Below, piece after piece: positions 41,963 to 53,495 of a stretch of 64,000 nucleotides of DNA. How positions within the stretch are numbered: position 1 is the stretch's first letter; every line of letters starts with the position of its first letter. The position numbers and the translations under genes are program-made. Source of the stretch: Promethearchaeia archaeon (GTDB lineage Archaea > Asgardarchaeota > Lokiarchaeia > Sigyniarchaeales > SOKP01); assembly GCA_029856045.1 (NCBI GenBank), contig JAHQWG010000003.1, positions 1 to 64,000 on the forward strand, in the 5' to 3' direction. The notes beneath the pieces are model-generated. The model was given only the letters and a program-made list of their open reading frames with translations, made no database searches and was not told where the DNA came from.

Positions 41963-43222
41963 GTGAGTAAAATGAAAAGATTAAATAATCTAATATATCT
42001 TTTTGGATATTTAGTTCAAGGATTACTGCTAGTATTTTTTAATACTTTCTTACCCGTTCTACTAATTACGGTTTTGGGAATTCCTGAATCAGAAATTGCT
42101 TTTGCTCAATTAATTTCATATGCTGCGTTTTTAATTAAACCGATATTTGCATTGTTATCCGACAAAACTTATGAAAAAACTGGTCAACATCCTAAAAGGA
42201 AAACTTACATATTTTTGGGCAGTATTGGCTTATTTATCAGTTTTCTGTTAATGATTATTTCAATTCAAATTATGATTCTTTTTGGTATTTTTTGGAGTAT
42301 AAACTATTTCTTCATATCAATAATTGATGTTGCAATTGATGGAAATATTATCGATACTTCACCTAATATTCAAACGAAAAAAAGAAAAATTGTCTTAATA
42401 CAAATTGGAAATTCATTGGGTAATGTTTTAGCTTATTTATCCTATATTTTAATTATTAATAATATTTATAACATAAACGATTGGAATAATCTCTTTACTT
42501 TCCAATTAATCACACTATTTCCATTAATAATTCTTTCTTATTTTATATATAATAAAACTATTAATGAAGGAAATAGACAAGAAAGCCTTGAAGAAGAAGG
42601 TGTAAAACAAAAAATATATAAAAAGATAAGTATAAAAACTTTAGATCAATCACATCTAAAGCTTAGTTTCATTTGTATAAGTGCATTTTTGATCCTTTTT
42701 TTCTCAGAAGCACTAGTGCAGGTCCCTTATGAACCTTGGTTAGTGGGAAGATTTGGTCAGGAAGGTTTTGAAATATTTTCATTCTTTCTGATTTTTGCTC
42801 CTTTTATCAACATTATTGGATACCTCTTAATTAATATCGCGCTCAAATATAGTGATAGAAAGAAAATTCTTTATTTTTCAATAATTGTCGTTGGTATTTT
42901 TGATATGTGTATTCCATTTATGGATCTTTGGACTTTAATCATATTAGGAATGTTTGTATTAATTCCGAATGCAATAGCCTATATTGCATTTGTTTCTTTA
43001 ATGATGGAGTTTGCAGGAAATAAGTTTAGTTATAAATATCAGATACTTGCATTAATGGTAATTATTTCTATGCTTATTTTCGGACCATTAGGCACTTTTC
43101 TTTCTGGATTTATAGATACGGGAATTCTACTTGTTATCGTAGGAATACTTACTCTGAGTTCAATTATTCCGATAATATTCATAAAAATGCAAAAAGTTGA
43201 TAATCGAAATTATTTTTTTTGA
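41963..43222 (+). CDS. MFS transporter
   Basis: About 12 TM segments, IKPIFALLSD...RK.Y and DVAIDG motifs. Confidence 0.8.
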   Translation: MSKMKRLNNLIYLFGYLVQGLLLVFFNTFLPVLLITVLGIPESEIAFAQLISYAAFLIKPIFALLSDKTYEKTGQHPKRKTYIFLGSIGLFISFLLMIISIQIMILFGIFWSINYFFISIIDVAIDGNIIDTSPNIQTKKRKIVLIQIGNSLGNVLAYLSYILIINNIYNINDWNNLFTFQLITLFPLIILSYFIYNKTINEGNRQESLEEEGVKQKIYKKISIKTLDQSHLKLSFICISAFLILFFSEALVQVPYEPWLVGRFGQEGFEIFSFFLIFAPFINIIGYLLINIALKYSDRKKILYFSIIVVGIFDMCIPFMDLWTLIILGMFVLIPNAIAYIAFVSLMMEFAGNKFSYKYQILALMVIISMLIFGPLGTFLSGFIDTGILLVIVGILTLSSIIPIIFIKMQKVDNRNYFF

Positions 43223-43292
43223 ATAAATCAGAAATTTTTAATACTTTTTTAAATAAAATTAGCATAATTTCTTAGAGAGGCATTTGTAATTG

Positions 43293-43701
43293 ATGATTAA
43301 ATCCGAAATTGGTTCCGAATAAACGGAAAAACTTCTTGATTTAAAGAAGGACGAGTTCTTAATTCCGTTTAAGGTCGTACTGGGGTCCAGGTGAGTCGGG
43401 AAAAACAATAAATTTTAATAGGTTAAAAGAAAGGTTCAGTAAGGTCAAAATAACTCAGGGATATTCGATCGAGACGACCAATGGAAGGACGCTCTGGCAA
43501 GATTCCGTGTTTTTAATGTTGGGATGCGAATTAGAAGGTAAAAAATATAGAATTATCGTACAGATAGTTACCTGCACAGTTCAGGAAAGATTTTTATCTA
43601 CTAGAGAATACGTAATTGACGGAGCTGACGGATTTGTGTTTATTGGGGATTCAGACCCTGAGAAAATCGAGGAAAATACCAGTTTGTTCCCTTATCTCTA
43701 G
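43293..43701 (+). pseudogene. MglA-like small GTPase pseudogene
   Basis: MIKSEIGSE*TEKLL...FKVV / frameshift / WGPGESGKT...GRTLWQD...TCTVQERF...GADGFVFIGDS, truncated before G4. Confidence 0.8.
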
Positions 43702-43741
43702 TTTTACTATTGAAAATTTGTTGGTAAGTATTTCTTTCAAT

Positions 43742-44089
43742 TCAATAATCCTTGGATCGAATTACATGAAACCATTGATTCCAAACATTTAATAATTTTG
43801 CAAATTGTTCTCTGGAAATTGAGTATTCTTTGAATTTACCTTTCTTAGAACTATGAATAAATTTATGTTTCTCCAAAATTCTAATATGATGGGAGATAGA
43901 AGGTTGACTTTTATTCAAGCTTTTTTCAATATCAGATAGTAAACATGGTTTATTATTTAATAGATTTAAAATTAAAAATCTGTCTTTATTCCCTATGATT
44001 TCCATACATTCTCGTAAGAACTTATTGGAGTTCTTCTTCTTGATTTCTTTTTTTATAGTTTTACTTTTATTCTTTGAGAATTCTTCCAT
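43742..44089 (-). CDS. ArsR-family winged HTH regulator
   Basis: RFLILNLL, SQPSISHHIRILE, KKGKFKEYS. Confidence 0.88.
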   Translation of the reverse strand: MEEFSKNKSKTIKKEIKKKNSNKFLRECMEIIGNKDRFLILNLLNNKPCLLSDIEKSLNKSQPSISHHIRILEKHKFIHSSKKGKFKEYSISREQFAKLLNVWNQWFHVIRSKDY

Positions 44090-44131
44090 GTTTTTCTTAA
44101 TATTCTCTTTTTTCTACTATTTTCTAAAAAA

Positions 44132-44971
44132 TTAAGATGAGAGATTTTTAATCCAATTCTCCCATAAATGCACAAATTCCATTATTTTTGGCTTATTTAA
44201 TGAATAATAAATATATTTTCCATTTTTACATCCTTTAATGAATCCTGTTTCCTCTAATTTCTTAATATGATGTGAAGATGTAGATTGAGATTTACCAATC
44301 AACATCTCTATTTCTTCCAACTTTAATGGTTGAGATTTTATTACTTCCAGCATTAAAAATCTTTCAGGATTTGAAAACGATTTTAACCATTCAATTAAGT
44401 TAATTTTTTCATTAATAACGGCTATTTCAAGTATAGGTTCTATGTCGTCATTTCCTTGTTCAAGATAATTTCCTTTTTCTAAAGAATTATTAATTTGGGA
44501 GGGTAAAACACTTTTATCTGATTGGATTAAATGTTTAATCTGTTTAAATTTTTCATTATCTTTCTTAAGTTTATTTTTCACTTGATGATTATACATTGCG
44601 AGTTCTATTGTAGGTAGAAGCTCATCTTCACTCGTTATAGGTTTTACTATATATCCATAAGGTTCCGATAATTTGGCTCTATTTAATGTTTTTTTATCTC
44701 CGTATGCAGTTATAAATATAATAGGAATATTATATTTTGCATTAATAATTTTCGCTGTTTCAATTCCATCCATAGACCCAGCGAGAATTATATCCATTAA
44801 TATCAAATCAAGATTTAAATTCTTGATTTTGGAAATTGCTTTTTCTCCAGAAGAAACAATGGCTATTGGATTATAGTTTAATTTTTTTAAAAGAATCGCT
44901 ATTGCTTCAGCGGTAATTAATTCATCTTCAACAATCATGACTTTTATTTGCGACATTTTACTAATTCTCAT
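44132..44971 (-). CDS. Response regulator with C-terminal ArsR-type HTH
   Basis: IVEDE, DLILMDI, TAY, KP; C-terminal NPERFLML...SQSTSSHHIKKLE. Confidence 0.88.
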   Translation of the reverse strand: MRISKMSQIKVMIVEDELITAEAIAILLKKLNYNPIAIVSSGEKAISKIKNLNLDLILMDIILAGSMDGIETAKIINAKYNIPIIFITAYGDKKTLNRAKLSEPYGYIVKPITSEDELLPTIELAMYNHQVKNKLKKDNEKFKQIKHLIQSDKSVLPSQINNSLEKGNYLEQGNDDIEPILEIAVINEKINLIEWLKSFSNPERFLMLEVIKSQPLKLEEIEMLIGKSQSTSSHHIKKLEETGFIKGCKNGKYIYYSLNKPKIMEFVHLWENWIKNLSS

Positions 44972-44979
44972 AATAATTT

Positions 44980-47277
44980 TTATAATTTCCAGGTGATTAT
45001 GAAATGAGTTCCATTATTTCTTTCAATAGTAATATTTCCATCCATTTGTTTGGTTATAGTGTATATAAGTTTTAACCCAATTGTATCTGAATTTCTATAA
45101 TTTACATCTTTGGGAAAACCTATTCCATTATCATACACATCTAATAATATTCTATTGTTTTTGGTTTTTTTCAGTGTAACAATAATTTTTCCAACATCAT
45201 TTTTAGAAAATGCATGTATTAATGAGTTAGATACAAGTTCATTTACAATTAAACCACAAGAAATGGCTTTATTTAGGTTTAAATCAATATTTTCAATTTT
45301 CAATTGTAATTTAATTTGTTTGGAATTTGCTGAATAAGCTTTAAATAGATTATTAACAAGGGTTTTCATGTATTTTGAAAGATCTATCTTATTTAAGTTT
45401 TCGGATTTGTATAATATTTCGTGTATTAGCGCCATAGCTTTAATACGATTTTGGAAATCCTTAAAAATATGAAGAACTCTTTCATCTTTTACATATTGAT
45501 CTTGTAGTACTATTAAACTTGAAATTATTTGTAAATTATTTTTTACTCTATGATGGATTTCTTTTAGGAGTATTTCTTTTTCTGCTAGGGAAGATTCCAA
45601 TAGTGATTCATTCTTTTTTTGCTCGTTTATATCAATTATATTTATATGTAGAGCACAGGTTCCTTGAAATTGAATCCTTTTTGAATATTGTCGGATATAC
45701 AAATAATTTTCATTTTTTTTCTTCATTCGTATTTCGGATTGAAATGAGGATATATCTTCGTTTAAAATTTTATTATATTTTTCTAAAGTCATTTTTAAGT
45801 CTTCAGGATGAATATGCTGGCTTATAGTGTTTAGATCCCAAGATAGTAGTTCATTTATCGAAAATCCTAAAATATCAGATATACCTTTGTTTGCAAAAAT
45901 TATGCGTTCATTAGCAATGATAAGAGTACCCAACAAGGATTGTTCTGTGAGTATTCGATATTTTTCTTCACTTTCTCTTAACTCTTTTTCAGTATAATCA
46001 CGAACAATAACACTTGCAAGAATATTTGCTATAGATTGTAAAAAATTGATATCATCTTTTGAAAATTTCCGATATTTTTTTGTATGAGCTCCTAAAATAC
46101 CAAATGGTGCGTTTATTCCTTGAATAATAACACTCATTCCACTAATGACATCATGATCCGCAAGAAGTTTTGGTGCACAAAATCTCGTTTCATTTTTCAA
46201 GTTTTCCACAATTACTGGCGTAGTTTTTAGTAATGTAAAACCTGCTTGCGAATTTATATTATTTTCAACAGTTGCATTTCCAACTAATCCTTTATGCCAA
46301 CCAGACCCTGCCCTTAATTTTAAAAATTTGTTATTCGGAAGAAGTTCAAGTACTTTCGTAAACTCAATATCCAATATTTTTGCAAGTAAAGATGATGCTT
46401 TTTTAAACAATTTATCAATTTGTTTTTCCGTAATAGCTTCTAAGCCAAATTTTGCAATCATTGCTTGTCTATGGATACGATTATCAATGAACTGTCGGAT
46501 TGTTCTGTATCTCGTTAAGTCTTCGGAAACACAGAGAATTCCGACAATTTTATTTTGGTTATTGAAAATTGGTCCCATATTAGATGAAAATTGTATATCA
46601 CTTCCATTCTTTTTTTTTAATCGATATTTAATATTTGTAACAAATTTACCTTCCAATACTTTCTTAATTCCTTTGGTAAAAATCATTTTATCATTTGGAT
46701 GAATTAATTTATAAATGCTTAATGAATCAAGGATTTCTTCTTTGTTATATCCTAGAATATCAGTAAAAACATTATTTATATCAAGAAAATTTATGTTTAG
46801 ATCTAATTTATAAATCATAAATTTAGAAATTTTAAGCAATGTTTGAAATTTCTCTTCAGCTAAACATTGAGAAAAATAAGAATTTTTTAGTTTATTGAAG
46901 TGTTTTGTATTTTTTATCTCTCGTTTAATAGTAGGAATTAAGCGATTTAGATCATCTTCTTTGATATAATCATTTATTCCGGTTTTTATCAAGGAAATCA
47001 TCGCTTTTTCATCTATTTCTTGTCCAATAACAATATAGGGAATTATTAATTCTTTTTCTTTGATAATTCTTAATATTTCTATTCCGTATCGTGTCCATGC
47101 TTTATAGTCGGATAATATAATATCCCATGTTTTTTTAGATAACACTAAATTTAAAGTAACATAATTTTCGATAAATTCCAATTGCACTTTGAAGTTATAA
47201 GCTTTTAACTTTTGAATTATTGAGGATACTGAATCTTTAGAATCAGAAATGAATAATATATCAAATTTTTCACTCAA
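44980..47277 (-). CDS. Sensor histidine kinase, REC-PAS-GAF-PAS-HisKA_2-HATPase
   Basis: EIHHRVKNNLQ H-box, NELVSN, DNGIG, two IHPxD PAS motifs, GAF (FSKDDINFLQSIANIL), degenerate N-terminal REC. Confidence 0.92.
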   Translation of the reverse strand: MSEKFDILFISDSKDSVSSIIQKLKAYNFKVQLEFIENYVTLNLVLSKKTWDIILSDYKAWTRYGIEILRIIKEKELIIPYIVIGQEIDEKAMISLIKTGINDYIKEDDLNRLIPTIKREIKNTKHFNKLKNSYFSQCLAEEKFQTLLKISKFMIYKLDLNINFLDINNVFTDILGYNKEEILDSLSIYKLIHPNDKMIFTKGIKKVLEGKFVTNIKYRLKKKNGSDIQFSSNMGPIFNNQNKIVGILCVSEDLTRYRTIRQFIDNRIHRQAMIAKFGLEAITEKQIDKLFKKASSLLAKILDIEFTKVLELLPNNKFLKLRAGSGWHKGLVGNATVENNINSQAGFTLLKTTPVIVENLKNETRFCAPKLLADHDVISGMSVIIQGINAPFGILGAHTKKYRKFSKDDINFLQSIANILASVIVRDYTEKELRESEEKYRILTEQSLLGTLIIANERIIFANKGISDILGFSINELLSWDLNTISQHIHPEDLKMTLEKYNKILNEDISSFQSEIRMKKKNENYLYIRQYSKRIQFQGTCALHINIIDINEQKKNESLLESSLAEKEILLKEIHHRVKNNLQIISSLIVLQDQYVKDERVLHIFKDFQNRIKAMALIHEILYKSENLNKIDLSKYMKTLVNNLFKAYSANSKQIKLQLKIENIDLNLNKAISCGLIVNELVSNSLIHAFSKNDVGKIIVTLKKTKNNRILLDVYDNGIGFPKDVNYRNSDTIGLKLIYTITKQMDGNITIERNNGTHFIITWKL

Positions 47278-47374
47278 AATTCATGCACTACTCTAAATTT
47301 TCTATTTTTATTAACTTTAATATTTTAAGAAATTTCTTTAATTATAATATTGGAATTTTCATTAAAAAATATCT

Positions 47375-47422
47375 GTTTAATATTAACTATATCCAAGCGT
47401 TTAATATTAACTATATCCAAGC
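47375..47422. repeat. Perfect 24-bp tandem duplication GTTTAATATTAACTATATCCAAGC
   Basis: Two adjacent copies at 47375-47398 and 47399-47422 in the divergent intergenic region. Confidence 0.85.
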
Positions 47423-47744
47423 TTTCATTCTAACATTCTTAATATTATTAAAAAAAAAAATTGCTTTAAGGAAAAATTTTTCGATATAGATCGAAATATG
47501 TTAATATTGAATTAGATAAAATAGAAAGGAAGGTTTAATTAATTTAACAGATGATTTTTGCTTTAATATAAATTTTAAAGATATTTTTTCCATTTTTCTA
47601 TTCTAACTAATTTATCAGTTTAAAAAACTATTAATACAGTAAAACTTATAAATAAATTGAAGTAAGTTTTATATAAAGATTGTTGTTTCTTTATTTAAAA
47701 AAATTTATTTCAAAAATATAAAATTATAAAAATAGGAGAAAAAA

Positions 47745-48230
47745 ATGGTAAAATTAACACCTGAAATGAAAGAAGCGTTGATAGTTCCTGGAAAAGGAGG
47801 ATCTGTAATCTATTTAGCTACATCAACTATAGATGGTAAACCTAATATTGCTGCTATGAGATATATAGCAAGTATGAAAGATGACAAGGCTTTGGTCGCT
47901 GATATGTTTTTACTGAAAACAAAGAGGAACCTAAAGGAAAATCCCGAATGTTCCATAATTATAGGACACCCTATTGATTCGGGAAGAGATTGGGTATTTA
48001 AAGGAAAAGCAATAGATATAGAATATGGCTTTCCGCCTGATTTTGATTGGTATGGGATAACTGCTAAAGAAGTTTTAGCTGAATGGGGAGATTGGCATAA
48101 TAAAGAACCTCCAGATGAAGTGCCTCCTGATGTTGTATATTCACATCCCGCTCAGCGTGGAGTTGTTGTATTACATATCGAAGAAGTATATTCAATTGAA
48201 AAAGGAAAAGTAGGAGAAAAAATTTTATAA
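47745..48230 (+). CDS. Pyridoxamine-5'-phosphate-oxidase-like flavin-binding split-barrel protein
   Basis: YLATSTIDGKPN, ADMFLLKTKRNLKENP, FKGKA, IEEVYS; AGGAG upstream. Confidence 0.8.
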   Translation: MVKLTPEMKEALIVPGKGGSVIYLATSTIDGKPNIAAMRYIASMKDDKALVADMFLLKTKRNLKENPECSIIIGHPIDSGRDWVFKGKAIDIEYGFPPDFDWYGITAKEVLAEWGDWHNKEPPDEVPPDVVYSHPAQRGVVVLHIEEVYSIEKGKVGEKIL

Positions 48231-48243
48231 GAGGTATATAAAA

Positions 48244-48666
48244 ATGGCAATAGTTTTAACGAATAGAATGAGAGAATGGATAAAGACAGGATGTCTTTTA
48301 AATGTAGCTGATAAAAATGGAGTACCTTGTATTACCACCGCTAGAAAAATAGATTCAGTTTCAGATGATGAAGTCGTATTTGCCCTTACTAAAGACGAAT
48401 ATTCAGTGATTAAAAAACCTTTATCAGATAATTCCTGGGTTGCTTTTGGAATTCTTGGAATTGGTAGTATTCGGTTTTGTTATCAATTTAAAGGTAAAGG
48501 AATAGCGAAACAGAAAGGGGATAATGTACATTTGACTGTTAAGCTCTCGGAAGTTTATTGCACTAAACCTGGATGTTATGCTGGGTTGCGACTTGATCTT
48601 AAAACTCCTAAAGAATTTGATGAGTGGGAACGAAATTTATGGAAAGATATGCCAAAAAAAAAATAA
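48244..48666 (+). CDS. Second PNPOx-like split-barrel protein
   Basis: VADKNGVP, YQFKG, EVYCTKPG..AG. Confidence 0.65.
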   Translation: MAIVLTNRMREWIKTGCLLNVADKNGVPCITTARKIDSVSDDEVVFALTKDEYSVIKKPLSDNSWVAFGILGIGSIRFCYQFKGKGIAKQKGDNVHLTVKLSEVYCTKPGCYAGLRLDLKTPKEFDEWERNLWKDMPKKK

Positions 48667-48752
48667 AATTTTAATTTTTTTTTTTTTCTAATATCAAAAA
48701 AGATTAGAAAGAGATACATAATAAAAATAATATATACATGGTTAAATAACAA

Positions 48753-49061
48753 TTGAAATCAGTTAAGCAGATGGATAGTAAAAAAATAGATAGAAAGAAA
48801 CCTAAAAAAAAACCCGAACAATTTCCTTGGTTTATGCCATTTATGTGTGAAGGGTGTGGAGATTGTGTAGAAGCATGTCCAAATTCGTGTATTGAATTAA
48901 TGGGATTAAATCGAAAAGTCCCAGTGGCATGGCTAATTTATCCAGATTATTGTTTGGGATGTGGAAATTGCGCAAATATGTGTATAGTTGATGCCGTTCA
49001 AATGACTAAATACGTGGATAAAGCAATCGAGCGATATAAAACAAAAAAACCGTTTGAATAA
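48753..49061 (+). CDS. 2x[4Fe-4S] ferredoxin
   Basis: CEGCGDCVEACP and CLGCGNCANMC. Confidence 0.88.
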   Translation: MKSVKQMDSKKIDRKKPKKKPEQFPWFMPFMCEGCGDCVEACPNSCIELMGLNRKVPVAWLIYPDYCLGCGNCANMCIVDAVQMTKYVDKAIERYKTKKPFE

Positions 49062-49087
49062 ATTTGAATAAATAGCAATTAATTTTT

Positions 49088-49165
49088 TTTAATTCATAAC
49101 AAATTTAATTCATAACAAAATTAAAAGTAAAAAAAAAAGTAAAAAAAAGCAAAAAAAAAGTAAAA
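49088..49165. repeat. 16-bp tandem repeat TTTAATTCATAACAAA x2 followed by A-tracts spaced about 10-12 bp
   Basis: Read directly upstream of GAGGAGG and the CCG-protein start. Confidence 0.7.
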
Positions 49166-49178
49166 GAGGAGGAAATAA

Positions 49179-50243
49179 ATGGTATTTGATTTAAGAAGAT
49201 GTGATTTTTCGAAATGTAAAGGAGAATGTCTTGCAATGTGCTTATTTGTTGATTATGATGAGCAAAAAGCTAAAGCGGATATGGCCAAATTAATAGCTCA
49301 AGAACCTGCTGATATTCTTGCTAAATGTGTTACTTGTTATGGGTGTAATGAATATTGTCCTCAAGGAGCAAATCCATGGGATTTGATAAATCAAATGCAG
49401 GAAAAGACAGGTCTTTATATATATCCAAAAGAAGCTAAAAAAACTGCTTTAGGATGGGCAGAAAAAGAAGATAAGATCGTTAAAGGAGATCCTGATAAAC
49501 CTGCTGTTTCTATAGGTGGTTTTCCTGATGCACTTCCATGGGAGAAAGTTTTTAAAGGAAAGTTATTTGAAGGATTACCACTAATAATGGGTGGATCATA
49601 TTGCTGCAGAGCACCAGAAACACATATGTGTGATGCTAATTCTGCCTTAGATACCCTTCCATCATTAGTAAAAAATCTTGCTGATACAGGATATAAGGAA
49701 ATAATTTTTTATCATGATGCATGTTGGGGTTTTGTAACATCTGAAGCACTTGCTAAAATGATTGAAGTTCCTTTTAAACCAATTCATCTTATGGAATATA
49801 TTCGAGATTGGCTAAGAGAGCATAAAGATTTAATCACTCCATTAAATATTAAAGTTGCATATCAACGACCTTGTACTACAAGATATAATCCTCATGGAGA
49901 TTTAAAAGAAGGTTTCTATGATTGGGTTGAACAAACTTTTGAATTACTCGGTTGTGAGCTTGTAGAGCGAACATATCAAAAGGAAAATACCATGTGCTGT
50001 TGTTCCGGTATTTTTCCAACCCAGAAAGAACGTGCTATGAGTTATGTAAGAAAGAACCTGCAAGATGCTAAAGATGCTGGAGCAGATAATTATATTACAT
50101 TCTGTCCTATCTGTACTGCAGTAATGCGAGGTACAGCTAGAAAAATGGAAATGGAACCTTATCATATAATAATGCTCGTACAAAAGGCACTTGGTGAAGA
50201 TTTACCATTAGGGGGAGCAGGAATCGGAACTCCAGTTCATTAG
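49179..50243 (+). CDS. Fe-S oxidoreductase with ferredoxin-like N-terminus and CCG domain(s) (HdrD/GlpC-like)
   Basis: CVTCYGCNEYCP, YCC, YQRPC, MCCCSG, FCPIC. Confidence 0.8.
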   Translation: MVFDLRRCDFSKCKGECLAMCLFVDYDEQKAKADMAKLIAQEPADILAKCVTCYGCNEYCPQGANPWDLINQMQEKTGLYIYPKEAKKTALGWAEKEDKIVKGDPDKPAVSIGGFPDALPWEKVFKGKLFEGLPLIMGGSYCCRAPETHMCDANSALDTLPSLVKNLADTGYKEIIFYHDACWGFVTSEALAKMIEVPFKPIHLMEYIRDWLREHKDLITPLNIKVAYQRPCTTRYNPHGDLKEGFYDWVEQTFELLGCELVERTYQKENTMCCCSGIFPTQKERAMSYVRKNLQDAKDAGADNYITFCPICTAVMRGTARKMEMEPYHIIMLVQKALGEDLPLGGAGIGTPVH

Positions 50244-50291
50244 TAAAAATAATCAAATATTTTTTTTTTTATATATAAATAAGGATTTAAG

Positions 50292-51002
50292 ATGAGAGTT
50301 CTTATAAGTATACGTTCACTTGAAGAATTGCAACCTGCCTTAGAAGGAAAAGCTGATATTATAGATCTAAAGAATCCAGACGAAGGTTCATTAGGTGCAG
50401 CCGTTCCTTCATTTATTAAAAAAGTTAAAAAATTAGCATTAAATAATTTAGTAAGTGCGGCAATCGGAGATATGCCAAACCTTCCAGGAACTGCAGCATT
50501 AGCCGCATTTGGAGCTGCAAAATCAGGAGCAGATTATGTAAAAGTAGGACTTTTTGGAGTAACTAATGAGGAAGAAGGAATAAAATTGATGACTGAAGTA
50601 GTTAATGCTGTGAAAGAGGCCAACTCAGATGTTGTAGTAGTTGGGGCTGGTTATGCAGATTCAAGATCTTTTGGCGGTGTTGATCCGTTGATAATTCCTA
50701 ATATTGTGAAATCAGCAGGTGCTGAAATTGCAATGTTAGATACCGCTGTAAAAGATGGTAGAAGGTTATTTGATTTTTTAAATTTAAAGGAATTAAAAAA
50801 TTTTGTAGATAATGCTCATAATCAAAATTTATTGGTAGCGCTCGCAGGATCTCTTCGTACTGAAGATTTATCTATTATTAAACAATTAGGCGCTGATATT
50901 GTAGGATTTAGAGGTGCTGCGTGTAGTAATAATGATCGGAGGAAGGGTGTTGTTACAACAGATCGTGTTGCCAAGATTATGAAAATCACTAATAATTTAT
51001 AA
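50292..51002 (+). CDS. mfnB: (5-formylfuran-3-yl)methyl phosphate (4-HFC-P) synthase
   Basis: DIIDLKNPDEGSLGA, SAAIGD, YVKVG, GYAD, MLDTAVKDG, LAGSL, VGFRGAAC. Confidence 0.88.
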   Translation: MRVLISIRSLEELQPALEGKADIIDLKNPDEGSLGAAVPSFIKKVKKLALNNLVSAAIGDMPNLPGTAALAAFGAAKSGADYVKVGLFGVTNEEEGIKLMTEVVNAVKEANSDVVVVGAGYADSRSFGGVDPLIIPNIVKSAGAEIAMLDTAVKDGRRLFDFLNLKELKNFVDNAHNQNLLVALAGSLRTEDLSIIKQLGADIVGFRGAACSNNDRRKGVVTTDRVAKIMKITNNL

Positions 51003-51057
51003 AACAATTAAAATATTATTTTAAAAATTTTAAATAAATTAAAAAAAGTATAAAAAA

Positions 51058-51312
51058 ATGTCAACAAAAATAATAAAGCATATAGATGATAGATGTTATG
51101 CTTGCAAAACGTGTGAATTAGTTTGTTCTTTTCACCATAATAAAGTATTTCAGCCATCAAAATCGAGTATATCCGTAGAAAGAGACCATTTAAATGGTAT
51201 TTGGACATGGACATTAGATGATAGTTGCGATAATTGTGAAAACGAAGAGGAGCCATTGTGTGTTAAATTTTGTTTATATAATGCTATTGTAATTAAGGAG
51301 GAGGAAGATTAA
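51058..51312 (+). CDS. Small Fe-S protein, AOR-associated
   Basis: CYACKTCELVCS, CDNC...PLCVKFC; abuts the AOR gene. Confidence 0.8.
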   Translation: MSTKIIKHIDDRCYACKTCELVCSFHHNKVFQPSKSSISVERDHLNGIWTWTLDDSCDNCENEEEPLCVKFCLYNAIVIKEEED

Positions 51313-51313
51313 T

Positions 51314-53233
51314 ATGAATAGATTTAAAATTAAAGGAGGAATTACGGGGAAGATTTTACGTGTTGATTTAAGTGCAGAGAAAGTAAGAGTTGAGGAAAAT
51401 AAATATGCTGAAAGATGGATTGCAGGAAGGGCTTTGAGTAGCTGGATTCTCTTGAATGAAATGGACCCCACAACTAAATGGTCTGATCCTGAAAATTATC
51501 TTATTTTTGGTGCTGGTGCATTAATTGGTACGATCGCTCCTGCTAGCTGCCGGACAAACATCGATACGATAAATGTATTTAATAATGGAAAAGGATCCTC
51601 TAATGTTGGTGGGCATTTTAGCCCAGAGATGAAATTTGCAGGGTTTGATCAAATAATCATAAAAGGTAAGGCTGAAAAGCCTGTCTATTTATTTATCTCT
51701 GATGGTAAAGCTGAAATTCGTGATGCATCACATCTTTGGGGCAAAAGTACTTATGAAACTGAAGATATACTTAAGAAAGAATTAAGAGATAATAAAATTG
51801 AGATAGCTTCTATTGGTCCTGCTGGAGAAAATTTAGTTCATGGATCCGCAATAATTATAGATTGTGGTAGGGCTGCTGGTGGGTCTGGGGTTGGATGTGT
51901 TATGGGAGATAAAAAATTAAAAGCTATTGTAGTTCGAGGACACAACTCAGTGAAAGTTGCTCATCCAGAAGAATTTTTACAAAGAGCTTATGAAGCATAT
52001 CAGAAAATAATAAAACGTCCTACAGCTAAAGTATTCCGTAAAAAAACTCTTGCAGGAATGGTATATAATGACTCTGAACAATTTGATGATCTATGGGAAA
52101 TGATGCATTCTACTAAAAATTCTCAAGATGTACATTGGTCTCGTGAACAACGTTCAAGAATAATGGGTAAGGAAGGTGTTGGAAAATTCTTTAAAAAAGT
52201 TCAAGCGTGTTATGCATGTCCTGTAGGTTGTCAGCCATATTCTGAAATTAATGAAGGAAAATTTAAGGGTTCCAAGGGATTAGGTTATTGGATTAATTCA
52301 GTTATGTGGTCTGGAAAGATGGATGTTACTGATCCAGAAGCTTCATTAAGATATCATCTTCGTGCTAATCAATTGGGCTTGGATGGAGATGACTCATCCG
52401 TCGTTATGTCTTGGGCATTCGAGGCATATGAAAAAGGATTGTTAACAAAAGAAGATGTTGATGGCTTAATTTTAACATGGGGTAATTCTGATGCAATGCT
52501 TGAATTACAGGAAAAAATAGCTTCACGTGATGGTTTTGGTGATTTTCTTGCAGATGGTGTAGTTGCTGCAGCAAAAAAACTTGGAAAAGGTTCAGAAAAA
52601 TTTGCTATTAATCAAAAAGGACAAGATTCACTTGATCCATATCGTGTTTGTAAGGGATGGTCTCTCGCGTGTGCCACATCTCCAATTGCAGGGCGTCATA
52701 TGAGGGGAAGCATCAATATACCGATTGCATTTGGGCCAAAAGGTGTAAAATTTAATCCATATTCTTATGAAGACCAACCACCAATAGTATTTTGGGAATT
52801 ACGAGCTAAAGAAATTGAAGACATTACTGGAATCTGTGTTTATGTAGGAACTTGGTCTGGTGTATATGCACTTGAACCTTCAGATTATGTCGAATTAACT
52901 AATTTAGCATTAGGAATTAACCTAACGGAAGAGGATTTCATGCTCTTAGGGCAAAAAGGTTATAACTTAGAGAAAGCATTTAATACCATTCATGTTGGAT
53001 TTAAACGCGAAGATGACCTTCCACATCGAAGATTCTTTGAAGATCCTATATTATCAGGGCCACATAAAGGAGAAACCTTAAATAAAGAAAAATATAATTC
53101 TATGTTAGATGCATTTTATGAACTTCATGGATGGGATAAAGAAACGAGTTGGCAAACCCGTAAAACTTTAGAATCTTTGGGACTATCCGATGTAGCCGAA
53201 AAATTAGCAGAAGTTGGTCGGTTGATTGAATAA
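51314..53233 (+). CDS. Tungsten aldehyde:ferredoxin oxidoreductase-family protein (atypical active-site region)
   Basis: GKILRVDLS, IGPAGEN, MGDKKLKA, CYACPVGC, LGLD, DITGIC, FYELHGWD. Confidence 0.9.
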   Translation: MNRFKIKGGITGKILRVDLSAEKVRVEENKYAERWIAGRALSSWILLNEMDPTTKWSDPENYLIFGAGALIGTIAPASCRTNIDTINVFNNGKGSSNVGGHFSPEMKFAGFDQIIIKGKAEKPVYLFISDGKAEIRDASHLWGKSTYETEDILKKELRDNKIEIASIGPAGENLVHGSAIIIDCGRAAGGSGVGCVMGDKKLKAIVVRGHNSVKVAHPEEFLQRAYEAYQKIIKRPTAKVFRKKTLAGMVYNDSEQFDDLWEMMHSTKNSQDVHWSREQRSRIMGKEGVGKFFKKVQACYACPVGCQPYSEINEGKFKGSKGLGYWINSVMWSGKMDVTDPEASLRYHLRANQLGLDGDDSSVVMSWAFEAYEKGLLTKEDVDGLILTWGNSDAMLELQEKIASRDGFGDFLADGVVAAAKKLGKGSEKFAINQKGQDSLDPYRVCKGWSLACATSPIAGRHMRGSINIPIAFGPKGVKFNPYSYEDQPPIVFWELRAKEIEDITGICVYVGTWSGVYALEPSDYVELTNLALGINLTEEDFMLLGQKGYNLEKAFNTIHVGFKREDDLPHRRFFEDPILSGPHKGETLNKEKYNSMLDAFYELHGWDKETSWQTRKTLESLGLSDVAEKLAEVGRLIE

Positions 53234-53495
53234 TATTTTTAAGAATTAATACAAACTTTTATTTTTTTATTTTTTTCTATTTCAGTTTTTAAATAATTTT
53301 TCCTGTATTTTTTTTTTAAGATATTTAATTTATCTTCTAAAACGGAAAAAAAATGAACTAGTTTTTGAATTATAACCTTTCCTCCACAATTTTGTATATC
53401 TTTAAATCTAAAATTTTAAAACAAATTGAATAATTAATTACTTAAGTTCAGAGAACGTGTTTTACCCCAATTTAATAAAAGAAAGAAAGACCATT

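Follow-up and report, generated by a model that had tools for sequence, protein, structure and literature searches.

An Asgard gene cassette that joins a second mfnB to a split-barrel/Fe-S module and a non-canonical AOR-family enzyme

MfnB makes the furan aldehyde 4-(hydroxymethyl)-2-furancarboxaldehyde phosphate (4-HFC-P), a methanofuran precursor whose usual next steps are those of MfnC, MfnE and MfnF, and enzymes of the AOR family interconvert aldehydes and acids. The aldehyde-oxidising clades of the latter family (AOR, FOR, GAPOR and WOR) conserve the second-shell residues Thr243, Glu313, Tyr427 and His448 (2025 review, PMC12096430). In the genome of a Promethearchaeota (Loki-type Asgard) archaeon, which is not a methanogen and has a Wood-Ljungdahl gene set of the tetrahydromethanopterin (H4MPT) type, members of both families lie in one gene cassette; the 64,000-nucleotide stretch that was analysed (the window) carries it between positions 43,742 and 53,233. 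The host genome (G000) has 3.34 Mb at ~29.5% GC. A literature search that paired MfnB with AOR, and methanofuran with Asgard and AOR, found no paper describing an mfnB-AOR linkage. The cassette is a conserved, sharply bounded, regulated and mobile unit. We tentatively favour the view, to which we give rather less than an even chance, that it is an inducible, methanofuran-linked redox side branch of one-carbon metabolism.

A bounded and mobile ten-gene cassette

The initial annotation described seven co-oriented genes at 47745-53233, divergent from a two-component system. All seven are recovered at these positions by the open reading frame (ORF) listing and profile searches, and the two-component system is present as a REC-PAS-GAF-PAS-HisKA_2 kinase, a REC-ArsR protein and an ArsR protein. 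The seven-gene run is not free-standing and forms the forward arm of a cassette of ten genes. The reverse arm (minus strand) consists of an ArsR-type helix-turn-helix (HTH) regulator (43742-44089; HTH_5, 40.5 bits), which adjoins the response regulator in 12 loci, the response regulator itself, in which REC is fused to an ArsR-type HTH (44132-44971; Response_reg 73.2 bits plus HTH_5; 71-99% identity across other cassette loci), and the sensor kinase, to which Pfam assigns a REC-PAS-GAF-PAS-HisKA_2-HATPase architecture (44980-47277) and which is divergent from PNPOx1 in all complete loci. The forward arm (plus strand) runs through the putative split-barrel flavoprotein PNPOx1 (47745-48230; PNPOx_N 30.1 bits against a cut-off of 28.1), the divergent 140-residue split-barrel protein PNPOx2 (48244-48666; AF2 model and Foldseek), a 2x[4Fe-4S] ferredoxin with a TTG start (Fd, 48753-49061; Fer4 families, two CxxCxxCxxxC motifs), an HdrD/GlpC-like CCG Fe-S protein (49179-50243; CCG, 35.4 bits), MfnB2, the product of a second 4-HFC-P synthase gene (50292-51002; PF04476), a small 84-residue Fe-S subunit with eight cysteines (FeS, 51058-51312; Fer4_9), whose gene ends 1 nt upstream of the next, and the catalytic subunit of a tungsten/molybdenum (W/Mo) enzyme of the AOR family (51314-53233; AFOR_N 228.1 bits and AFOR_C 271.3 bits). 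Intergenic gaps within the forward arm are 1-117 bp, and T-runs follow PNPOx2 and the AOR gene. Ribosome-binding sites of the GGAG/GAGG type, described earlier as strong for several of these genes, stand before PNPOx1, PNPOx2, CCG and AOR; mfnB2 has a weak site, and none precedes Fd or FeS.

A scan with the AOR protein, using one genome per species, retrieved 16 archaeal loci at 78-99% identity, onto which all window genes were mapped. The full ten-gene order recurs in 10 other species-level genomes, four loci hold a partial cassette on shorter contigs, and one lies on a contig that begins at FeS, so that the upstream part is not visible. Clustering of all ORFs places the ends of conservation exactly at ArsR and at AOR, beyond which the flanks vary among loci. 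A survey of 400 genomes of the phylum detects the AOR gene in 19 (the host, 17 of the 134 in its family f1, where the distribution is patchy over four genera, and one of the four in family f11). Searching metagenomes with the CCG protein brought ~20 more cassette contigs; CCG is followed by MfnB in 16 metagenome contigs, and FeS (plus AOR where the contig extends) comes directly next in 11 of these. Sequencing runs from 16 studies of marine sediments and salt marshes contain a near-identical stretch. The initial annotation had proposed that expression of mfnB is at least coupled to a redox module, and had named linkage confined to this genome, with this as its sole mfnB, as the case against it. 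The coupling is supported: many species-level genomes and metagenome contigs retain the MfnB-CCG and MfnB-FeS-AOR linkages along with the two-component system, and the host does hold a second mfnB.

The cassette behaves as an insertion/deletion. The 10.1-kb segment that holds it (43216-53362) is present in the host and in genome G004 and absent from G001 and G002 of the same genus, in which a gene of the MFS family is followed ~90 bp on by hdrB and the neighbouring genes are 82-90% identical to those of the window. A contig from one sequencing run (X17) joins position 43215 directly to 53363, the short microhomology TTTTTGAAT occurs at both junctions, and homology with the same-genus genomes resumes at ~53374. 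Because the cassette was inserted between the MFS gene and hdrB, its adjacency to Hdr and Fwd genes is secondary, and a functional meaning for that adjacency was rejected on the comparison with G001 and G002.

A comparison of 12 loci shows block-wise conservation of the 467-bp region between the kinase and PNPOx1 (47278-47744). This region contains a palindrome, TTTCGAT-N4-ATCGAAA (47479-47496), which is conserved across loci and, judged by its sequence, could be an ArsR-type operator, and a conserved TATA-like element, AAACTTATAAATAA, at 47645, ~100 nt upstream of PNPOx1. Window-identical contigs from run X19, which is labelled metatranscriptomic and is probably DNA, cover 47674-50469 and patches of the AOR gene; their left end falls ~20-25 nt downstream of the TATA-like box, a hint only, as contigs cannot show the start or level of a transcript and nothing follows from the stretches that they leave uncovered. 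No RNA run is listed among those that hold the near-identical stretch. A 24-bp tandem duplication at 47376-47423 (the unit begins TTTAATATTAACTATATCCAAGC) is single-copy in 11 other loci, and one X17 contig is without 24 nt at its site.

Around the cassette, hdrB, hdrA, mvhD, a ferredoxin gene, an fwdF-like gene and fwdDBC follow on the 3' side, and the MFS gene (41963-43222), hdrC, fwdA and an mvhG-like gene lie beyond the regulator genes. The MFS gene stands between hdrC and hdrB in the host's genus (loci L089 and L090), and hdrC-hdrB-hdrA are contiguous in other genera. At the left end of the 10.1-kb segment lies a small-GTPase remnant (43363-43698, plus strand), a 112-residue open segment that lacks a start codon and corresponds to the P-loop half. 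It is 72% identical to a gene elsewhere in the host genome (contig C35, 102053-102352) and is also found in G004 and in two metagenome contigs. Its identification with the Ras-type gene that flanks the cassette at loci L044 and L052 was rejected, as there was no match.

MfnB2 and an exchangeable payload

MfnB2 matches PF04476 over positions 1-227 of 228 (257.7 bits against a gathering threshold of 22.4) and MJ1099 (PDB 4RC1) with 238.7 bits. The lysine-bearing motifs that had been noted in it, DLKNP, YVKVG and AVKDG, are present and correspond to D25/K27, K85 and K155 of MJ1099; D151 is kept as well. Asp25, Lys27, Lys85, Asp151 and Lys155 of MJ1099 are what we take to be the essential catalytic residues, and none of the five varies among 15 cassette copies and 28 further copies of MfnB. 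With 292.6 bits, MfnB2 stays below the 341-bit cut-off of the equivalog model NF002573. The housekeeping copy (283.3 bits), the G001 copy (268.3 bits) and other Asgard copies also fall below it, and we therefore regard the shortfall as a property of the lineage and not of MfnB2. By these alignments, the gene is intact.

The two MfnB copies of the host are 47% identical. Both mfnA and mfnF are single-copy elsewhere in the genome and score above their cut-offs. The housekeeping mfnB, on contig C27, has as neighbours genes for a His_biosynth (HisA/HisF-type) protein, a GNAT protein, pyrroline-5-carboxylate reductase, aconitase and ATP-citrate lyase. A maximum-likelihood tree divides the MfnB sequences into the family's housekeeping clade, with the C27 copy among its members, and a second clade, clade A (ultrafast bootstrap 97, SH-aLRT 94), into which all cassette copies fall. 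Clade A extends beyond cassettes; it is the sole type of MfnB found in G001, G244, G251, G197, G238 and G276, and in G001 and G002 a clade-A gene occupies the housekeeping locus, among neighbours 87-97% identical to those of the host. As clade A provides the only MfnB of other genomes, the sequence argues that MfnB2 most likely still makes 4-HFC-P. The neighbours of clade-A mfnB outside cassettes (genes for a zinc-ribbon protein, a GNAT protein, an ABC-2 transporter and a URO-D-like protein) are generic. URO-D/MtaA-like genes stand both beside a non-cassette clade-A mfnB (L085, 788-1948, minus strand) and beside a spare Ftr-Mch pair of G276 (L158, 8392-9567, plus strand); the two are 25% identical and the link is weak. 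The host's housekeeping mfnB has, 9.7 kb downstream, an AOR-family paralogue (C27, 207338-209527; 729 residues, with a canonical GPDYET), probably by coincidence.

Within the cassette, the MfnB position is occupied by members of two subclades that are 57-61% identical, and the adjoining CCG and AOR proteins are 72-87% and 78-83% identical. In genome G276 (L087, contig C22) and at L106, the cassette is split into two convergent halves, MfnB-FeS-AOR and PNPOx1-PNPOx2-Fd-CCG-MfnB, each of which has its own MfnB, the two being 63% identical. Since the slot holds two subclades and both halves of the split cassette carry MfnB, we suggest that MfnB is selected for in the cassette.

The genes upstream of mfnB2 had been annotated as encoding two split-barrel flavoproteins, a ferredoxin and a CCG protein. 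The split-barrel fold is supported for both of the former, and the flavin is putative. PNPOx1 is 80-84% identical across cassette loci and has a 68% identical homologue in Methanoculleus bourgensis MS2. PNPOx2 has no Pfam match; its AF2 model (pLDDT 87.7) is a split barrel whose Foldseek matches are HupZ, PNPOx-like proteins and flavin reductases, and the protein is a remote paralogue of PNPOx1 (hhalign E 3.9e-4). Modelling of the two together gave an ipSAE of 0.83 against 0.00 for the best control, with at least 81% of contacts shared by three runs and a partner pLDDT of at least 83; the ipSAE mark is reached by 58 of 80 solved complexes and by 2 of 110 mismatched pairs, and as split-barrel homodimers have been solved, the pass of this pair may reflect likeness to those structures. 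The model makes it likely that PNPOx1 and PNPOx2 form a heterodimer.

In the CCG protein, two cluster motifs at the N-terminus precede two CCG domains, of which the first is degenerate and the second complete. Its invariant cysteines are residues 8, 13, 17, 21, 50, 53, 56, 60, 143, 182, 232, 273, 274, 309 and 312; C232, C273, C274, C309 and C312 make up the CXnCCXnCXXC motif of the second domain, which matches the second CCG domain of HdrB in the PDB. Homologues at ~40% identity adjoin genes for MoaE, AsnC, a thiamine transporter, KaiC and an AIR-synthase-like protein and offer no functional lead. More distant HdrD-like homologues (30-33% identity) lie directly upstream of a gene for a 665-residue OYE plus Pyr_redox_2 (enoate-reductase-like) protein in five metagenome contigs (L146-L148, L154 and L157). 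These settings suggest that the CCG family serves as a redox partner of flavoenzymes.

The four-gene module PNPOx1-PNPOx2-Fd-CCG is portable and its payload is exchangeable. At L107, the kinase and regulator genes and PNPOx1-PNPOx2-Fd-CCG-MfnB are followed by a tight, co-oriented Ftr and Mch pair in place of FeS-AOR; L105 begins in the same way and reads module-MfnB-Ftr; at L109, the module leads directly into Ftr-Mch, with neither MfnB nor AOR; and at L131, a CCG homologue is followed by Ftr. The spare Mch is ~45% identical to the housekeeping Mch and has an 83% identical copy in G276, where the genes upstream of the Ftr-Mch pair (L158) were annotated from PDB matches alone. Because the payloads elsewhere are MfnB-Ftr-Mch or Ftr-Mch, we link the module to one-carbon transfer on methanofuran and H4MPT and not to the catabolism of furans. 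The host's only Ftr match is a 38-residue fragment cut by a contig end (C35, 137098-137211), the assembly missing most of ftr.

The AOR-family enzyme and the role of the cassette

The catalytic subunit had been called a tungsten enzyme. The metal cannot be read from the sequence, and both W and Mo are possible. The [4Fe-4S] motif CxxCxxxC...C is kept (CYACPVGC and a distal cysteine in GICVY), and the best PDB match is Pyrococcus furiosus AOR (1AOR, 349 bits), ahead of BamB (245 bits). Of the four second-shell residues of the aldehyde oxidisers, His448 alone is retained; in the alignment, Glu313 is replaced by Asn or Leu, Thr243 by Ala and Tyr427 by Leu. The cassette enzyme and its bacterial relatives share the motifs G-x-G-[YF]-W-[IVS]-N, S-[LI]-[DE]-P-[YF]-R, R-H-[ML]-R-G, GLDGD and GVGCVMGDK, the first and third of which replace EGPEYET and the usual context of the histidine; Cys195 is specific to the clade. 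Eight other AOR paralogues are encoded in the host genome, of which six keep EGPEYET or LPEYET, a seventh has GPDYET and most keep YGT. Cys322 of BamB aligns with Trp326, so that a BamB-type cysteine ligand is absent. By its sequence, the enzyme belongs to an uncharacterised clade with a non-canonical, rewired active site. Ordinary aldehyde oxidation is doubtful because most of the second-shell residues of the aldehyde oxidisers are missing. The proposal of the initial annotation that the AOR redox-modifies a furan aldehyde is weakened by this His448-only second shell, as it is by the Ftr-Mch payloads that the module has elsewhere.

The eight-cysteine Fe-S gene is paired with AOR in the 16 archaeal loci and in 19 of 22 bacterial loci with an AOR of the same clade. 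The bacterial relatives (L054-L076; Atribacterota, Dehalococcoidales, Thermodesulfobacteriota, Spirochaetota, Synergistales and Verrucomicrobia) are 48-57% identical, have the same active-site motifs and are accompanied by no cassette gene other than the Fe-S partner. Conserved beside them are genes for a Liv-type ABC transporter, an Asp/Glu/hydantoin-type racemase and a 457-residue amidohydrolase, together with PyrK/PyrD-like genes and those for aspartase and PEPCK; the neighbours in two phyla are a hydroxylase of the xanthine dehydrogenase (XDH) family, UbiD, IclR, a TRAP transporter and M20. This setting looks like an undescribed catabolic cluster for heterocycles or amides, centred on a W/Mo enzyme that is short of the residues of the aldehyde oxidisers; a literature search that combined AOR with hydantoin racemase or allantoinase found nothing relevant.

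In the role that we favour, the electron-transfer or reductase half of the cassette would be formed by the PNPOx1/PNPOx2 heterodimer, the 2x[4Fe-4S] ferredoxin and the HdrD-like CCG protein, and the payload half, in this host, by MfnB together with the heterodimeric FeS/AOR-family W/Mo enzyme, all under the control of the two-component system. MfnB2 would supply 4-HFC-P, and low-potential electrons from the ferredoxin, the flavin and the CCG cluster would be exchanged with an intermediate at the formyl or aldehyde level. The rewired AOR would carry out a redox step other than ordinary aldehyde oxidation, and the extra MfnB would guarantee enough furan carrier, or enough of its precursor for use as a substrate. 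Several observations weigh against this role. Gene neighbourhood cannot identify a substrate, and the Hdr and Fwd adjacency in the host genome is secondary. The payload of the Ftr-Mch type is known from four contigs only. The cassette at L069 (genome G011) keeps its order and lacks MfnB; with the MfnB-less module at L109, it indicates that MfnB is dispensable. Finally, as the bacterial relatives stand in heterocycle or amide contexts that lack MfnB, the chemistry of the AOR clade need not involve methanofuran.

An alternative that we consider unlikely, and yet worth serious thought, is that 4-HFC-P is itself the substrate. FeS/AOR would then oxidise the aldehyde to a furan carboxylate (or reduce the acid), or PNPOx1/2 would interconvert the aldehyde and the aminomethyl compound F1-P; in the latter version, the chemistry would be similar to that of pyridoxal and pyridoxamine phosphate (PLP and PMP) in PNPOx and would be driven by the ferredoxin and the CCG protein, which would provide a bypass of MfnC or an altered furan carrier. 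The shapes of 4-HFC-P and F1-P do resemble those of PLP and PMP, MfnB is flanked by CCG and FeS-AOR at 14 of the 15 genome loci that show this position, and it is kept on both halves of the split cassette. The two arginines that flank the conserved histidine of the AOR (R-H-[ML]-R-G) would suit an anionic substrate, and the spare Ftr and Mch could serve an altered carrier. However, the AOR lacks Glu313, Thr243 and Tyr427, which are thought to be needed for aldehyde oxidation (PMC12096430), no MfnB lies near the bacterial relatives that share its motifs, and MfnB is missing at L069 and L109. Much less probable is a shared regulator in place of a shared pathway, with FeS/AOR and the module handling an imported or stress-derived acid, aldehyde or heterocycle and mfnB as a hitchhiking spare that linkage alone preserves. 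The bacterial FeS-AOR pairs beside transporters, the hydantoin-type racemase, the amidohydrolase, the XDH-family hydroxylase, UbiD and M20 are in keeping with such a role, as are the HdrD-like homologues that adjoin enoate-reductase-like genes and the L069 cassette with no MfnB. On the other hand, another subclade has taken over the MfnB slot with no loss of conservation in the genes on either side, the splitting of the cassette came with a duplication of MfnB, and the alternative payloads are again enzymes of methanofuran and H4MPT metabolism; taken together, these three observations are hard to reconcile with hitchhiking.

We regard as more improbable still a BamB-like function, in which the AOR subunit, its Fe-S partner, the HdrD-like protein and the neighbouring HdrA and MvhD would assemble into an electron-bifurcating complex that reduces a furan ring at very low potential. 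The AOR of the cassette, like BamB and YdhV, is without the second shell of the aldehyde oxidisers and has a GLDG motif in common with BamB, it is co-encoded with an Fe-S partner and an HdrD-like protein, and hdrB-hdrA-mvhD come next in the host, as do an HdrA-like gene and MvhD at L069. Yet the cysteine ligand is missing (Cys322 of BamB aligns with a tryptophan), P. furiosus AOR is a better match than BamB, and the Hdr adjacency, which is absent from most loci, arose by insertion into an existing hdrC/hdrB cluster. Both the hitchhiking and the BamB-like explanations are less likely than either a methanofuran-linked side branch or direct modification of 4-HFC-P.

A bolder proposal, which we put forward as a long shot, is that the rewired W/Mo enzyme is not an aldehyde oxidoreductase and acts on a group at the amide, carbinolamine or formyl level, in a reaction new to the AOR family. 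It is prompted by the absence of Glu313, Thr243, Tyr427 and the cysteine ligand, together with the conserved asparagine and the two arginines around His448. One example would be the interconversion of formaldehyde plus methanofuran (or a furan precursor) with a formyl-carrier, fed by the flavoprotein/HdrD-like module. If true, such a reaction would be a new entry to, or exit from, the methanofuran/H4MPT one-carbon pathway in Asgard archaea, and it would explain why the bacterial relatives lie beside amidohydrolases and catabolic genes for cyclic amides. Returning to the methanofuran-linked side branch, the cassette points to a branch of H4MPT/methanofuran one-carbon chemistry that is missing from current pathway maps. 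The AOR clade, common to Atribacterota, Dehalococcoidales and Thermodesulfobacteriota, presents a defined target for a new reaction of the family, and the proteins of the cassette, all of them small and soluble, lend themselves to expression and assay.

Comparison with characterised proteins

MfnB2 resembles MJ1099 (4RC1/4U9P) in its full-length match to PF04476 and in all five catalytic residues, and differs from it in being a second copy that belongs to a distinct Asgard clade and has a redox cassette for its surroundings, instead of standing alone or beside mfn genes. With P. furiosus AOR (1AOR) and the AOR/WOR family, the W/Mo subunit has in common both domains, the cysteine motif for the [4Fe-4S] cluster and His448, whereas Thr243, Glu313, Tyr427, Tyr312 and Tyr452 are not kept, the clade's G-x-G-[YF]-W-[IVS]-N, R-H-[ML]-R-G and GVGCVMGDK motifs standing in their stead, and a dedicated 84-residue Fe-S subunit is present. 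The likeness to BamBC(DEF), the class II benzoyl-CoA reductase of Geobacter (4Z3W), lies in an AOR subunit that lacks the aldehyde-oxidiser second shell, a small Fe-S partner and an HdrD-like protein nearby; in contrast to that system, the cassette AOR has no ligand of the Cys322 type, and neither HdrA-like nor NuoEFG-like genes are found inside the cassette. HdrA-like and MvhD-like genes, a hallmark by which benzoyl-CoA reductase clusters are judged, are likewise absent from its interior and are adjacent only in the host, by way of the insertion, and at L069.

The CCG protein shares with HdrD, GlpC and GlcF the N-terminal Fe-S motifs and the complete C-terminal CCG motif, but its first CCG domain is degenerate, its first cluster motif (CX4CX3CX3C) is atypical, and its partners in the cassette are small split-barrel proteins and not a dehydrogenase of the GlcD or GlpA type. 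PNPOx1 and PNPOx2, for their part, both have the fold of PNPOx, HupZ and the flavin reductases, and their modelled dimer forms through the barrel as in those proteins. The pair differs from them in consisting of very divergent paralogues, one of which (PNPOx2) escapes Pfam, that are predicted to form a heterodimer, for which flavin mononucleotide (FMN), F420 and heme are the candidate cofactors.

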